NCBI GenBank assembly: GCA_002441565.1
Contig: DJWM01000002.1
Location: 31,728-95,727 of the forward strand
Source: Candidatus Dependentiae bacterium UBA6230
GTDB lineage: Bacteria > Babelota > Babeliae > Babelales > Vermiphilaceae
Direction of reading: 5' to 3'
DNA: 64,000 nt
Shown here: positions 16,143 to 28,710 of the stretch, piece by piece
Numbering within the stretch: position 1 is the first letter of the stretch
Layout: every line of letters begins with the position of its first letter
Notes under the pieces: generated by a model
Told to the model about the DNA's origin: nothing
Databases searched by the model: none
What the model saw: the letters and a program-made list of their open reading frames with translations, nothing else
Position numbers and translations under genes: made by a program

Positions 16143-16838
16143 TTATTGATGATCAAGCAGATGTTCAAACGATCTTTTGATGTTACCCGAATATCGCCCA
16201 TCCAATAAGAGCATGTTAATGACAGCTTGGTAGTTTCTACGATGGGTCGCTAAATCGTTAAGAGGGTCTCGCCGCTCTTTGTTTTGAGATGCTTTATCTA
16301 GTGGAATTCTGCCTTTATGATCGCGAATATCAGATCGAGCACCATGCTTGAGTAAGAATTTGACTATTGATGGGCTGCATCTATCGAAACTTTCGCCTTT
16401 TGAGCAAGCATGGTGTAATGGTGTTTCTCCCTTATTATTCTGTAAGTCTATCAGCCATGGAGCATGGTCGAATAGGACTTCTGTTGTCTTGCCTCTTTCA
16501 AAGCACATAGCAGTCAAAAGTGGATTTTCACGGCAGGTTGACCATAACTTGGCGTGTTTTTTTACAAAATCGTTTTCAGGAATGCTGTCTAAATAGATCA
16601 TTTCGGAAATTATCTCGCAGGGTCTTTCACCATCTTGGGCTAAATCACGCTGAATACAGAGGGACCTAGAAAAAGGTTCACCGTAAAGAGGGTTAGAGCA
16701 AGAATATCGTTCATTCATTTCTAATCTAAAGCGGGGGCGGATGGTGCAGGACCAATTATTAGAAGAAGGGCCCTCCCAATAAGGACCTGAGGCAAGCTCG
16801 CCGCTATAAAGCGATTGCTGTATGCTCATTGAGCTCAT
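16143..16838 (-). CDS. ankyrin-repeat protein (no signal peptide)
   Basis: NKGETPLHHACSKGE...IVKFLLKHGARSDIRDHKGRIPLDKA are canonical ANK repeats. The N-terminal roughly 110 aa are unassigned. Confidence 0.8.
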   Translation of the reverse strand: MSSMSIQQSLYSGELASGPYWEGPSSNNWSCTIRPRFRLEMNERYSCSNPLYGEPFSRSLCIQRDLAQDGERPCEIISEMIYLDSIPENDFVKKHAKLWSTCRENPLLTAMCFERGKTTEVLFDHAPWLIDLQNNKGETPLHHACSKGESFDRCSPSIVKFLLKHGARSDIRDHKGRIPLDKASQNKERRDPLNDLATHRRNYQAVINMLLLDGRYSGNIKRSFEHLLDHQ

Positions 16839-17317
16839 GACAGTAAATTACCGCCAATAGGTATGGCGCACCGTTTTTTAACTTCATAATGACCTTATTG
16901 TTATTGATATTTGTTAATACAATTTTTCATTTAGTGCTATCAAGATAGGCGAAATTGATCCATTGTAAAGGACTTTTTATGCGAAAAAGTATGCGCTAAT
17001 ACTTGATTTTTTTTAGATCATCCTATGGCAACTTTTCTTTTTTTGTGCATTTCAGAGTTGAACCTAGGAAGGGTAACGGTAACAAAAGCGGCTAAAAAGA
17101 ACAATAGGTTGTTGACTAAGGTATAAATGATGGGTGGTTTAGTTGATGCCGATTCATACGTTGAAGAGAGTGTCTTTAATGCATGTTTCAGGAGGGTACG
17201 ACGAACAAAGAAAATTTCTATTTGAAATATTGACATCTGGAAGCTATTATCTTTATGCTGACTGATAGTGGAAAGTAGTAGTATATGACTTATTTTAGAT
17301 AGAGATGAGGAGTGGAC

Positions 17318-18514
17318 ATGTTATATTTTAAGCGATTTTTACGATTTAATTTTTTGTTAAGTTTCTGTTTTATCCTGGTGCAAACTTTGTGTTTAGCTCA
17401 GGATTCTGCATCGAGTGAAGCGTACTCAGATGTGGAGTATAGTGCAGCAATGGACTGGAGCGGAGGAGTAAGAGGAGTAAGATTTTTGGTAAAATCCATG
17501 GATGATGCGCTTGGTGCTGCTGGTAAGATAAATGAATTGAAGCCAGATATTCTGGAGATAGATTTAGACAGACAGCTTGCTGGTTCTGTGCAAGCTGTTG
17601 AGTGCATTCAAGCAATTATTGAAAATTTGTCTGTCGAAGCTAGAAACGCTATAGAAGTTTTGTCTCTGGTTGACAATGGTTTACCTGATCTTCCGGATGT
17701 GAGAGAGCTTGTCAATTTAGAAATTTTTGATGTAAGTGAAAATTCAATGATTTCTCTTGGAAACCTTGTTAGTAGAGTTCCGTCTAGATTAGAGGTTCTT
17801 TCTTTTCGAGAATGTAATTTAACGGTATTTCCTAATATTGTTGGGTTGAATAATTTAAAGATTATTCGTGCTTCTGAAAATCAATTTACGCAGTTACCCA
17901 ATATATCTCATCTTAGCGCACTTGAGGAGCTTGATTTAGGAGGAAGTAGGCTGAGTAGCCTGCCAAATTTGGATAATCTGATTAATTTAAAGGAACTAGA
18001 CTTATCTTCGAATGGATTGGCTACACCGCCGAATTTAAGTCGTTTGGTGCGCTTACAGCATTTGAATTTAAGTAATAATAATTTAACAGTGCCACCCGTT
18101 TTAACAGGATTGATTAACTTAAAAGATCTTGATTTAAGTGATAATTTGCTTACTAGTGCTCCGAATTTGGATGGATTGATCAATTTGCAGGAGCTTGATC
18201 TTGCTAATAACCAAATTGTTGTACCGCCATTTTTATCAGGGTTGTCAAACTTGAAGTCTATCTGGTTTACGAATAATCAGCTTACTCTTCCACCGAATTT
18301 AACTGGTTTATATAATTTACGGGTTTCTGAGGAAAATTTTAGTGGAAATCCATTCATGGCTGATCCTAATCTGAAGGGCCTGTTATTGGATCAGCTGAAC
18401 CAAATTGCGGAGGTTCAGCGAACCGGGGTTATTCCAATGATTCCTTCTACTTCTCGGGCCCCACAAAGAAGAGATGATGATGCCCCAGCACAGAAAAGAG
18501 CTCGATCAGAATAA
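17318..18514 (+). CDS. secreted leucine-rich-repeat protein (22-residue repeats) with a basic C-terminal tail
   Basis: GAGGAG lies 5 nt upstream of ATG 17318. It has a hydrophobic leader and 10 or more repeats of the form LxxLPNLxxLxNLxxLDLSxNx. The tail is APQRRDDDAPAQKRARSE. Confidence 0.85.
   Translation: MLYFKRFLRFNFLLSFCFILVQTLCLAQDSASSEAYSDVEYSAAMDWSGGVRGVRFLVKSMDDALGAAGKINELKPDILEIDLDRQLAGSVQAVECIQAIIENLSVEARNAIEVLSLVDNGLPDLPDVRELVNLEIFDVSENSMISLGNLVSRVPSRLEVLSFRECNLTVFPNIVGLNNLKIIRASENQFTQLPNISHLSALEELDLGGSRLSSLPNLDNLINLKELDLSSNGLATPPNLSRLVRLQHLNLSNNNLTVPPVLTGLINLKDLDLSDNLLTSAPNLDGLINLQELDLANNQIVVPPFLSGLSNLKSIWFTNNQLTLPPNLTGLYNLRVSEENFSGNPFMADPNLKGLLLDQLNQIAEVQRTGVIPMIPSTSRAPQRRDDDAPAQKRARSE
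17701..18330 (+). repeat. tandem imperfect 66-nt (22-codon) LRR-coding repeats
   Basis: Consecutive units include LSSLPNLDNLINLKELDLSSNG, LATPPNLSRLVRLQHLNLSNNN, LTVPPVLTGLINLKDLDLSDNL, LTSAPNLDGLINLQELDLANNQ and IVVPPFLSGLSNLKSIWFTNNQ. Confidence 0.8.
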
Positions 18515-27001: not shown

Positions 27002-27105
27002 AGCTAAATTTCCTTCTTATAACTGGAACAGTATTTCTTTTAGACTAATAGTTTTACTTGATTCCAGTAAAGTAAGCGATATGAGATGAGGTCTATGGCG
27101 TTTAA

Positions 27106-28710
27106 TTACGCATTATTTGATAGTTGGATGGGAACCTGATGAATAGTGAGTTTTGTGGTTGCTAGATCAAGTTCTCCATAAGGAACGTAGTGATAGTCGT
27201 ATACTTTCCCATAGCCTGAGAGTGGCGCAGGTGCAACGGTTACTACATCGCCCTGCCGAAGCAGTATTGTTTGAGATGTAGTGGGCAATGATGAGGTATC
27301 TTGGTTATCATGCTGCTGAGAGCGCCAGGCGCAATAAGCTCCTCCGTGTTGTTTAATAATCGGCATAGTATGCTCGGTATGCTGGTGGCCGCGTACAATG
27401 GCAAGTAGTAGTGCTTTGTCTGACGAAGCAGCTGCACAAAGAGCGTGTACCAAATCTTTGCCATATTCCACCGATAATGCGCCGCGGCAGCTTTCTTTCA
27501 TGATGCTATTTTGCGCATCTTCAAAAATAATATCACCCCACACGTCTCCCAATTGACATGAAGCAAGGGAAGTGAGAGTAGCTATGTCTCTAATGTGTCG
27601 CGGAAAACGGTTTGCAAGGTCTGCTGGCCTTCCTATAGTTTGCTCTAAAGATGGTACTTTACAGCATAAAGTATGAAGATTACAGAGTCTGTCAAGGCTT
27701 GTGATGCGTGCTAAATCGTACTTATTATCAACATTGAGTAAAGCGTGTGGAGTAGAACCAAGATCACATGCTCCATGACAAAATTTAATAAATTGAGTAG
27801 GCAGGGATGGCTGGGCGCTATGTTTGCCGCCAACATAGAATGCCGCAGGAAGAACTTCGTAACAACTATACACCTCTTGAAGACAACGAATATGATCGGG
27901 ACATTCTGATTTTAAATGAAGCTTTTGAATTAACTCTTTGTGGAAACTATTGATTCGATTCACTGCGTAATCTTCATGATTGCCACGTACAAGTACTACT
28001 TGATTAGGATTGTGATTATAGAAATCAAAAACGAGTTTAAGTGTCTCTACGCCATATTTACCACGATCTACGTAATCTCCAGTAAATACGAATAATACTT
28101 GCGGATTGGTGATGGTTATGGTTCCATCCGGATGTAAGCGTAGAAAATTTTTTTCTTGAAAATGCTCAAAGAGGGCAATGAGTGATTGTACGTCTCCATG
28201 TAGATCGGAGATGCTGATGATTTTTGTGCCAGTATTTTCGGCATTATCAAAGACTTTTTTCTGTATATAGGGTGTAAAAGGAATTTCTGTAATTTTTTCA
28301 AAAAAATCTCTTAATGGCGTGATGCCATTGAGCCAGCGATCGTCTTGATCTAGTTGTTTTTTATGAAGCGCTCGCATGGCTGTGCAGGTATCTCTTATTT
28401 GCTGCATGGTGAACGGTGTTTGAACAGTAGAAGCGGGATGTTTAAGGTATTCAAAAATATTGGACGGTGTTAACCAAGGATTTTTTGTAGGGGAAAAGAT
28501 ACGATGAATTTTTTCTTTTACGAGCCGTATAAGCTGGCGAGGTGTTTTGTCAGAGGTGCGCAGTGATTGTTCTGTCGATGTTGATGTCGACGTAGATGCG
28601 CGTCTTTGTATTATTTGATGTGGAACACGTATGTGATGCGTTGCATTTGCGACCATAGAGTGGCTAAGTATGAGTATACTGACAAATAGCGTATGGCGCA
28701 TAGCTGGCAT
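27106..28710 (-). CDS. PPP-family Ser/Thr (metallo)phosphatase with a signal peptide and a roughly 150-aa N-terminal extension
   Basis: SISDLHGD (DxHG), FTGDYVDRGKYGVE (GDxVDRG) and VRGNHED (GNHE), with later FCHGA and VRGHQH. The leader is MPAMRHTLFVSILILSHSMVANA. Confidence 0.85.
   Translation of the reverse strand: MPAMRHTLFVSILILSHSMVANATHHIRVPHQIIQRRASTSTSTSTEQSLRTSDKTPRQLIRLVKEKIHRIFSPTKNPWLTPSNIFEYLKHPASTVQTPFTMQQIRDTCTAMRALHKKQLDQDDRWLNGITPLRDFFEKITEIPFTPYIQKKVFDNAENTGTKIISISDLHGDVQSLIALFEHFQEKNFLRLHPDGTITITNPQVLFVFTGDYVDRGKYGVETLKLVFDFYNHNPNQVVLVRGNHEDYAVNRINSFHKELIQKLHLKSECPDHIRCLQEVYSCYEVLPAAFYVGGKHSAQPSLPTQFIKFCHGACDLGSTPHALLNVDNKYDLARITSLDRLCNLHTLCCKVPSLEQTIGRPADLANRFPRHIRDIATLTSLASCQLGDVWGDIIFEDAQNSIMKESCRGALSVEYGKDLVHALCAAASSDKALLLAIVRGHQHTEHTMPIIKQHGGAYCAWRSQQHDNQDTSSLPTTSQTILLRQGDVVTVAPAPLSGYGKVYDYHYVPYGELDLATTKLTIHQVPIQLSNNA

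Follow-up and report, generated by a model that had tools for sequence, protein, structure and literature searches.

A strain-variable locus of ankyrin-repeat and other candidate host-interaction genes on a conserved gene backbone in Dependentiae

Our analysis of a 64,000-nucleotide stretch of DNA from Candidatus Dependentiae bacterium UBA6230 (contig DJWM01000002.1, positions 31,728 to 95,727; hereafter, the window) centers on a run of genes at window positions 16143-28710. This run is dense in genes for proteins with ankyrin repeats (ANK), leucine-rich repeats (LRR), RING-like domains, an alpha/beta-hydrolase domain, a PI-PLC-like domain, and a PPP phosphatase domain, and it is bounded by tkt on the left and an ABC-F gene on the right. 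We consider it likely that the run is a chromosomal hypervariable locus of a protist-dependent member of the Dependentiae (Babeliales), in which two junctions of an inherited backbone are filled with candidate host-interaction genes, rather than a transferred island.

All six ANK-related open reading frames (ORFs) of the window lie within eight consecutive genes among about 54 (chance upper bound, p = 5e-5), and this clustering is not due to chance. A reading of the sequence alone, which preceded our analysis, had described the run as eleven loci of almost exclusively eukaryote-like genes expanded in place. Its coordinates and gene order agree with the sequence, and Pfam matches identify both tkt and ABC-F as the bounding genes. 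The number of genes is nearer to ten, however, since comparison with the metagenome-assembled genome (MAG) of Candidatus Dependentiae bacterium DEP1 (hereafter, DEP1) showed that the ORFs at 20543-21226 and 19024-20607 are one gene with a frameshift of four extra nucleotides. The label eukaryote-like is too broad for the hydrolase, which is a conserved gene of the lineage, and for an orphan. Because the hydrolase, PPP, ABC-F, and tkt genes are syntenic in relatives, the run is a composite and not one unit, consisting of a conserved backbone and two fillings at 16143-23627 (ANK and LRR genes) and 24742-27001 (the orphan and PI-PLC-like genes).

A conserved backbone and a recurrently filled junction

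Synteny was assessed by tblastn of the window proteins against 80 genome loci fetched by tkt and 80 metagenome loci fetched by hydrolase alignment; a scan of JGI metagenomes queried with the single hydrolase protein gave no match. The left conserved flank is the transketolase gene tkt (14223-16085, plus strand), which has Pfam matches to Transketolase_N, Transket_pyr, and Transketolase_C and a ratio of nonsynonymous to synonymous substitutions (dN/dS) against DEP1 of 0.11. It is 96% identical to the DEP1 tkt, and the next-best matches, at 68-51%, are mostly from Dependentiae, Babeliales, or TM6 MAGs. The right conserved flank encodes an ABC-F ATPase (28733-30643, minus strand) that matches ABC_tran twice and ABC_tran_Xtn. 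Between the two flanks stands the Babeliales backbone gene for a lipase-like alpha/beta hydrolase without a leader (23704-24567, minus strand). Its PGAP1-like Pfam match is weak, at 26.1 bits, yet above the cut-off of 24.3, and the protein has the nucleophile elbow (G/T-H-S-x-G-G), the Asp, the His, and the HG oxyanion motif of alpha/beta hydrolases. The catalytic set of HG, THSHGG (Ser121), Asp177, and His244 is invariant across 16 orthologues, which upholds the earlier lipase-like call, and the gene is under strong constraint (dN/dS of 0.07 against DEP1).

The hydrolase gene is convergent to tkt in 71 relatives (25 GTDB genome loci and 46 JGI metagenome loci). The gap between the two genes ranges from 10 to 8190 nucleotides and is 200 nucleotides or less in 28 of the 71 (9 GTDB and 19 JGI loci). 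In six relatives (L003, L099, L104, L111, L131, and L140), ABC-F stands upstream of the hydrolase gene, so that tkt and ABC-F, whose adjacency elsewhere the sequence-only reading had proposed to compare, do lie near each other, at a distance of 4.2 kb in L003 and 2.5-7.1 kb in the other five, compared with 12.6 kb in the window. The arrangement in L003, whose tkt is 68% identical, is especially compact: a stretch of 6 kb holds tkt, two small ORFs, the hydrolase, a small ORF, PPP, and ABC-F, and genes of the ANK and LRR types are absent from it. The PPP gene adjoins ABC-F both there and in DEP1 (36% and 71% identity to the window PPP, respectively). Judged by this synteny, the ABC-F-to-hydrolase arrangement convergent with tkt is the ancestral, vertically inherited backbone, which PPP joins in close relatives. 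The hydrolase and PPP genes, which had been counted among the genes of an effector locus, thus belong to the inherited part, the former by its place beside tkt in 71 relatives and the latter by its place beside ABC-F in L003 and DEP1.

What lies between tkt and the hydrolase gene differs widely among the relatives. In L124, the gap holds an uninterrupted row of eight ANK genes on one strand, paralogues that all encode leaders and are 35-43% identical to one another over their full length, and in L005 it holds a single ANK gene. A DUF5122 beta-propeller gene occupies it in L031, a beta-helix protein gene in L058, and TnpB-like and Tn5-type transposase genes in L067; the cargo of further relatives includes a photolyase, a GH3 enzyme, and orphans. 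With conserved flanks and variable content, the junction of tkt and the hydrolase gene is a recurrent hotspot.

Two further observations concern this junction. In L010 (12057-13034) and L016 (11859-12749), a second, leader-bearing and lipoprotein-like copy of the hydrolase gene lies between tkt and the conserved copy, as read from the sequence. In L032 (11349-15487), the junction carries two paralogous orphans with an F-box-like start, LPxDVIxxIYxxLDExSL, for which Pfam gave no match.

Turnover between strains

The sequence-only reading had allowed for the same genes being dispersed in close relatives, and this is not what we found. In DEP1, the closest relative, they are clustered in the order of the window, across two contigs. 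The first carries tkt, a 63-aa ORF, ANK genes of 459 and 423 aa, a 200-aa gene, an ANK gene of 583 aa with a RING, the hydrolase, and the orphan, and the second carries PI-PLC, PPP, and ABC-F. The backbone DNA is 92.7% identical between the window and DEP1. Within the main filling, window positions 16077-18564, comprising an ANK gene, a 72-aa ORF, and an LRR gene, stand in place of the 3' two-thirds of the DEP1 459-aa ANK gene, and neither blastn nor tblastn returned a DEP1 counterpart of the ANK gene at 16143-16838. This ANK and LRR cassette is present in a third strain, represented by a Logan contig (L082) that is 96.6% identical over window positions 11001-17872. No DEP1 counterpart was found either for positions 19012-19971, which form the half of the split gene that encodes the RING-like domain, and the DEP1 583-aa ANK protein has additional ANK repeats compared with its window orthologue.

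Against DEP1, the ANK genes have dN/dS values of 0.29-0.52. The values for tkt, the hydrolase, PPP, PI-PLC, DJ-1, and the ComEC-like gene are 0.07-0.16, and those of the backbone genes among them are 0.07-0.13. Synonymous divergence (dS) extends from 0.016 in the gene for a 200-aa ANK-like protein (21345-21947), which is 100% identical in DEP1, to 1.1-1.2 in the orphan and PPP genes, with values of 0.17-0.47 in the flanks. Sliding identity to DEP1 delimits a near-identical tract of 1.2 kb with sharp edges (21211-22410), in which identity is 99-100%, as opposed to 78-89% alongside. We read this tract as the product of recent homologous recombination between strains, since its pattern is that expected from such an exchange. 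Overall, the visible strain differences are cassette replacement, truncation, frameshift, domain shuffling, and homologous recombination, and not recent duplication.

It is extremely improbable that the locus is an artefact of eukaryotic contamination or of a chimeric contig. The window is indeed from a metagenome assembly, in which it belongs to the JGI contig Draft_10000052 (3300001592) of 188,842 bp, and assemblies of other samples have contig breaks where the locus begins. However, DEP1, an independent MAG, has its genes in the same order, as does a Logan assembly in part, and the genes are compact and intronless, with the codon usage of their flanks.

Two additional features of these assemblies are of note. 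Logan contigs from other runs stop at the edge of the variable locus, L083 (11 samples) at the 3' end of tkt and L084 in the ComEC-like gene, and these breaks are a hint of strain heterogeneity. DEP1 furthermore carries, at L089 11748-14826 (equivalent to L002 4753-8059), two genes that separate DJ-1 from the genes for Gly-rich secreted proteins, one for a 739-aa WD40 beta-propeller protein and the other Gp49-like. Since the window lacks both genes (compared at positions 12192-12281), this is another eukaryote-like insertion that varies between strains.

Paralogy, composition, and signs of mobility

According to the sequence-only reading, ANK paralogy supports local duplication. In the window, this support is limited to one old pair: the ORFs that we call ANK-RING 1 (19024-20607) and ANK-RING 2 (22086-23627) are collinear paralogues, with 26% identity over 247 aa (E 2e-12). 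They are the sole such pair in the window, and its other ANK genes match one another at the repeat level only. A helical module of about 60 aa is present in both ANK-RING genes, in the DEP1 ANK genes, and in P0007, a homologue described below. At the DNA level, no duplications were found in the locus, and the repeats returned by the repeat search were short, at the level of chance, and none were direct repeats flanking the locus. We regard it as unlikely that the locus grew mainly through recent in-place tandem duplication of ANK genes. Such growth would agree with the collinear pair, the recurring module, the eight-gene tandem array at the same junction in L124, and the many tandem duplications of Babela (PMC4378268). 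It fits poorly with a single pair beyond the repeat level at 26% identity, with the lack of DNA-level repeats, and with the differences from DEP1, which are replacements, truncations, and recombination and not changes in copy number. In-place ANK expansion is thus seen at this junction in a distant relative but has left little sign inside the window.

The observation that the locus lacks an integrase, a transposase, a tRNA, and flanking direct repeats was confirmed, and no Rfam match was found there either. Profiling of composition, as the sequence-only reading had suggested, showed no difference between the locus and the remainder of the window in codon usage (distance, p = 0.31) or in GC content at third codon positions (GC3; p = 0.09), with an overall GC content that is 2 points lower in the locus (39.8% versus 41.8%; p = 0.02). 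It is therefore very unlikely that the locus is a genomic island of the classical kind, acquired horizontally, or what is left of a mobile element, and that reading had likewise argued against a classical mobile island. The slightly lower GC content, the transposases of L067 at the same junction, and the difference in content among strains would be in keeping with an island, whereas the absence of mobility genes and repeats, the flank-like codon usage and GC3, and the interleaving of variable genes with backbone genes that are syntenic across the order are not.

ANK and LRR genes of the main filling

The strain-variable cassette consists of a gene for an ANK protein without a leader (16143-16838, minus strand; Ank_2, 5e-16) and one for an LRR protein with 22-residue repeats and an N-terminal signal-like leader (17318-18514, plus strand; leader hydropathy, 2.41). 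The LRR call was well founded: LRR_4 matches five stretches of the protein (3e-27, 94.4 bits), and LRR_1 and LRR_8 are also over the gathering score. NCBIfam gave sub-threshold matches only, to internalins and XopAC. The C terminus of the LRR protein (18455-18514) ends in APQRRDDDAPAQKRARSE and has a basic, nuclear-localisation-signal-like look.

Next to the cassette lies a locus (18565-18996, minus strand) that had been called a disrupted ANK gene. Its 128-aa ORF (18610-18996) has no Pfam domain, retains a leader, and matches the N-terminal 110-136 residues of the DEP1 459-aa ANK protein, with similarity continuing beyond the stop codon to 18565. Since the ORF equals the N terminus of the DEP1 protein and similarity runs past its stop codon, it is a truncated remnant, and the earlier call is confirmed.

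The adjacent positions 19024-21226 (minus strand) represent a single ancestral gene for a protein with a leader, ANK, a helical module, ANK, a RING-like domain, and a second helical module, now divided into the ORFs at 20543-21226 and 19024-20607. The DEP1 423-aa gene matches these two ORFs in different frames, and DNA alignment with DEP1 places the frameshift in an A-rich tract, GATAAAAAAGAAGAAATTTGG, at 20573-20593 (minus strand), where the window is 4 bases longer. The split of the gene also accounts for the missing leader of ANK-RING 1.

The 200-aa ANK-like protein (21345-21947, minus strand) carries a leader, and its C-terminal half is charged and helical and ends in CC. Its C terminus, ...DGDGDDYWCC (near 21345-21360), resembles eukaryotic lipidation motifs in its CC, and the CaaX box of Legionella AnkB offers a comparison. 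ANK-RING 2 (22086-23627, minus strand; Ank_2, 2.7e-11) comprises a leader, ANK, a RING-like domain, the helical module, and a lineage-specific C-terminal domain. Its DEP1 orthologue of 583 aa is 81% identical, and a homologue search with its non-ANK part returned only the protein itself and DEP1. The ANK calls of the sequence-only reading stood above the gathering score for 16143-16838, for both halves of the split gene, and for 22086-23627, but not for 21345-21947, where Ank_4 reached 20.6 bits against a cut-off of 22.7.

A divergent RING-like domain

Both ANK-RING proteins contain a Cys-rich, RING-like domain, at 19375-19485 in ANK-RING 1 and at 22992-23105 in ANK-RING 2 (both minus strand). 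The former reads C-x2-C-x13-CC-x4-C-x2-C-x6-C-x2-C, and the two have eight Cys in common in the pattern C-x2-C-x13-CC-x3/4-C-x2-C-x6/7-C-x2-C. These domains were not detected as RINGs directly, since Pfam RING matches were nonsignificant (E 1.5-4.4), as were those of a direct PDB search, but indirect comparisons favor the RING call. An exhaustive HMMER scan of 1.84 billion cluster representatives with a profile of the Cys-rich domain plus module returned five proteins, two of which are those of the window. Among the homologues, P0007 scored 2e-13 and P0009 2.6e-4, and P0008 looks spurious. When searched alone, the Cys-rich domains of P0007 and P0009 gave full-length Pfam matches to RING or related zinc-finger families (4.3e-5 and 1.4e-3) that are below the gathering score, and their sole other match, to PSI_integrin, is negligible (E = 8). 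P0007, a RING protein without ANK repeats, comes from another relative, in which it directly adjoins the hydrolase orthologue (58% identity).

Across the five family members, the eight Cys are invariant with the spacing C-x2-C-x13/14-CC-x3/4-C-x2-C-x6-11-C-x2-C, as expected of zinc ligands. The profile of these five sequences gave 49 weak matches in the PDB, nearly all of them RING E3 ligases, the best being RNF125 (3.9e-4), RNF4 (1.2e-3), MAT1 (6e-3), and CNOT4 (0.035). In L146, a distant relative, the junction of tkt and the hydrolase gene encodes a protein with a leader, ANK, and a RING that passes the Pfam cut-offs (zf-C3HC4_3, 37.5 bits), and hhalign aligned our family profile to this canonical RING with a probability of 87.6% (E 3.5e-6). 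An AlphaFold2 model of the ANK, Cys-rich domain, and module, based on a 3-sequence alignment, had pLDDT values of 41-52 in the Cys-rich stretch, too low to bear on the RING fold. Taken together, the Cys-rich domain is probably a divergent C4C4 RING, with its fold and activity being predicted. It resembles the C4C4 RING of CNOT4 and the canonical C3HC4 RINGs of RNF125, RNF4, MAT1, and TRAF6 in its eight metal-ligand positions, RING-like spacing, and full-length profile match. It differs from these RINGs in that no residue separates ligands three and four (CC, where the others have C-x-H or C-x-C), in that all direct matches are below significance, and in that the last Cys is not followed by the linchpin Arg or Lys in either window copy.

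The second filling and the PPP phosphatase

The second filling begins with the orphan (24742-25833, plus strand), a leader-bearing, fast-evolving protein that has no Pfam family match and is 51% identical to its DEP1 orthologue (dN/dS, 0.31; dS, 1.13). It is followed by the gene for a leader-bearing PI-PLC X- or Rv2075c-like phosphodiesterase (25838-27001, minus strand). Precomputed Pfam records place PF26178 (Rv2075c_cat) and PF26146 (PI-PLC_X) on this protein and on its three homologues, which supports the earlier PI-PLC X-domain-like call; our own Pfam search and a PDB sequence search, on the other hand, gave no match. A THN motif, at the expected place of the first catalytic His, is invariant in the protein and its homologues, and an AlphaFold2 model from the 4-sequence alignment had a mean pLDDT of 47, too low for use. 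With the Rv2075c-type enzymes of Mycobacterium tuberculosis and other PI-PLC X phosphodiesterases, the window protein thus shares the PF26178 and PF26146 records, an N-terminal leader, and the invariant THN motif. It is, however, very divergent from Rv2075c-type enzymes, with three homologues in a word-indexed search and no sequence match among solved structures.

The PPP-family Ser/Thr phosphatase (27106-28710, minus strand) has a leader and an N-terminal extension of about 160 aa. Its identification in the sequence-only reading was sound: Metallophos matches at 1.6e-15 (58.5 bits), the complete set of PPP motifs can be read in the sequence (SDLHG, GDYVDRG, GNHE, HGA, RG, and RGHQH), and the best solved structures are eukaryotic PPPs. 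Of 70 PDB matches with E <= 0.001, the best 60 are all eukaryotic PPPs (E 1.5e-12 to 6e-7), led by BSU1 (1.5e-12) and followed by PP1, rdgC, PP5, and PP2A, and the alignments to BSU1 and PP1 span the PPP motifs. NCBIfam models of the bacterial ApaH, PrpE, and PrpA types matched weakly (E 7e-4 to 7.5e-3). By these profile comparisons, the window PPP is closer to eukaryotic PPPs than to the bacterial types. A leader-bearing PPP-like family of about 500 aa, with 25-29% identity to the window PPP, also occurs at other housekeeping sites in distant relatives (L175 6208-9521 and L176 2686-4236), once as a tandem pair; the family thus seems to be lineage-wide and untied to ABC-F.

Other observations in the window

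Outside the locus, positions 4575-7876 carry three consecutive genes of the GDP-mannose-dehydratase/epimerase type, of which 4575-5648 and 5652-6791 are 71% identical. Those at 5652-6791 and 6806-7876 have hydrophobic, leader-like starts, which is unusual for normally cytoplasmic enzymes and may reflect wrongly placed start codons. No family match was obtained for two pairs of tandem genes whose products bear leaders: 58067-58747 and 58876-59553, which are 44% identical, and 10988-11500 and 11513-12076, which are Gly-rich and 29% identical. UvrB (40215-42287) is one 690-aa ORF, which the public record of the same contig splits into calls of 489, 142, and 45 aa. A promoter scan gave no more sites than expected by chance; a terminator scan gave 25 sites, compared with 13.0 ± 3.5 in shuffled sequences, and was not used in interpretation.

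A model for the locus and its relation to known systems

Considering these data, we propose a model in which the backbone of ABC-F, in part PPP, and the alpha/beta hydrolase, facing tkt, the ComEC-like gene, and DJ-1, is inherited vertically, and in which two of its junctions have been filled with genes for repeat proteins and enzymes, mostly with Sec-type leaders. The main filled junction is the one at which the 3' ends of tkt and the hydrolase gene face each other. The fillings comprise ANK proteins, ANK proteins with a probable divergent C4C4 RING, an LRR protein, the PI-PLC-like phosphodiesterase, and the orphan. Their turnover is quick and proceeds through replacement of cassettes, such as that of the 3' part of an ANK gene by the ANK and LRR genes, through shuffling of modules (ANK, RING, and the helical module), through decay by frameshift and truncation, and through raised nonsynonymous change and homologous recombination between strains. 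The leader-bearing products would be exported by Sec, leave the cell by a type II system or in vesicles, and act on host proteins and lipids. In this scenario, ANK and LRR proteins may serve as binding scaffolds, the RING as a mimic of ubiquitin E3 ligases, PPP in dephosphorylation, and the PI-PLC-like protein as a lipid phosphodiesterase.

Several points weigh against this model. The sequence-only reading had stated that most genes of the run carry hydrophobic N-terminal leaders, and 8 of the 11 ORFs do. Nevertheless, about 40% of the other window genes are leader-bearing too, and the excess in the run is not significant (Fisher p = 0.09-0.19). Secretion and host-effector function are predicted from domain families and the Dependentiae literature, secretion from leaders only. 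The RING assignment relies on sub-threshold and transitive matches, with low AlphaFold2 confidence in the Cys-rich stretch, and the PI-PLC call relies on precomputed matches that our own Pfam search did not reproduce. The mosaic of identity could partly stem from chimeric metagenome assembly of co-occurring strains. Finally, DEP1 is the sole close relative covering the whole locus, so that each event may have been a gain or a loss.

The leader frequency of about 40% in the window fits that of C. destructans, in which 44% of all proteins and 78% of 98 ANK proteins have signal peptides (PMC6561590). It also bears on a different explanation, namely, that the leader-bearing proteins have their place of action in the periplasm or envelope of the bacterium itself, with roles such as self-protection or surface structure, so that the run would be a variable surface-protein locus and its products would not be effectors. 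This would accord with the leaders elsewhere in the window, with the lack of a dedicated translocation system linked to the locus, and with the self-protection that ANK proteins can provide in Bdellovibrio, as cited in PMC6561590. We nonetheless find it quite unlikely, since it is in eukaryotic cells that the known substrates of RING, PPP (best matches, eukaryotic PP1 and BSU1), and PI-PLC-like domains occur, raised dN/dS and turnover are typical of host-interaction genes, and published work on cultured Dependentiae has deduced that proteins are secreted into the host.

On the evidence given above, we considered and rejected three readings: a mobile island, contamination by eukaryotic DNA, and, as the chief mechanism in this genome, recent tandem duplication. 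We favor the hypervariable locus on an inherited backbone, and a bolder form of this reading can be put forward with considerable hesitation. The junction of tkt and the hydrolase gene might possibly be an order-wide, long-lived nursery of Sec-exported host-interaction proteins in Babeliales, one that includes a previously undescribed subfamily of ANK-fused C4C4 (CC) RINGs with the helical module, acting as secreted mimics of ubiquitin ligases and diversified by recombination between strains.

The Dependentiae parasitise protists, are widespread, and have hardly been brought into culture. The locus offers a compact and comparably placed set of candidate host-interaction genes (ANK, ANK-RING, LRR, eukaryote-type PPP, and PI-PLC-like), and with tkt, the hydrolase, and ABC-F as landmarks, gain, loss, and recombination of effector genes can be traced across the order and between strains. 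It is thus a convenient entry for population-genomic and biochemical work.

Parallels to such a locus are known from other bacteria. Legionella pneumophila translocates strain-variable repertoires of Dot/Icm effectors, among them the Ank/LegA family, AnkB with its F-box, ANK, and CaaX box, the U-box protein LubX, and WipA, which has a phosphatase fold. The window shares with these the joining of ANK to a domain of ubiquitin-ligase type, and the use of a metallophosphatase-fold enzyme and of phospholipases against the host would be a further likeness. However, the ligase-type domain is RING-like in the window and an F-box or U-box in Legionella, and export would use N-terminal Sec-type leaders instead of a C-terminal type IV signal. 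The NCBIfam models of AnkG, AnkH, AnkX, and AnkY gave repeat-level, sub-threshold matches of 18-34 bits; with family cut-offs of 500-1400, the window genes do not appear to be orthologues of the Legionella effectors. Amoeba-associated Chlamydiae have expanded ubiquitination-related families, in which LRRs are combined with F-box, BTB, or RING-like domains, as well as plasticity zones and type III secretion. The likeness lies in hypervariable regions between conserved flanks and in the in-place expansion of eukaryote-like repeat proteins in symbionts of amoebae. The Chlamydiae differ in phylum and protein families, and type III secretion is a chlamydial feature.

The closest comparison is with the cultured Dependentiae Babela, Chromulinavorax, and Vermiphilus, which are obligate parasites of protists. 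Signal peptides are present on 79 of the 126 ANK proteins of B. massiliensis, Sec and type II secretion count among the core functions of cultured members, and a RING protein and an F-box protein have been reported (PMC6561590, PMC4378268, PMC4776705). Babela massiliensis and Chromulinavorax destructans thus resemble the window in phylum, in their many ANK proteins with signal peptides, accompanied by LRR, WD40, F-box, and RING proteins, and in frequent tandem duplications (PMC4378268, PMC6561590, PMC4776705). Since an abundance of ANK proteins with signal peptides, along with further proteins of eukaryote-like type, is already recognised as typical of the Dependentiae, the current picture is unchanged, and our additions to it are modest. 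The papers on Babela and Chromulinavorax give genome-wide counts, whereas the data presented here add a conserved junction of tkt and the hydrolase gene as a recurrent hotspot, a mosaic at the level of strains, and, in contrast to the repertoires of the cultured members, a probable divergent C4C4 variant of the RING, the rare CC form, with about five proteins among 1.84 billion cluster representatives.

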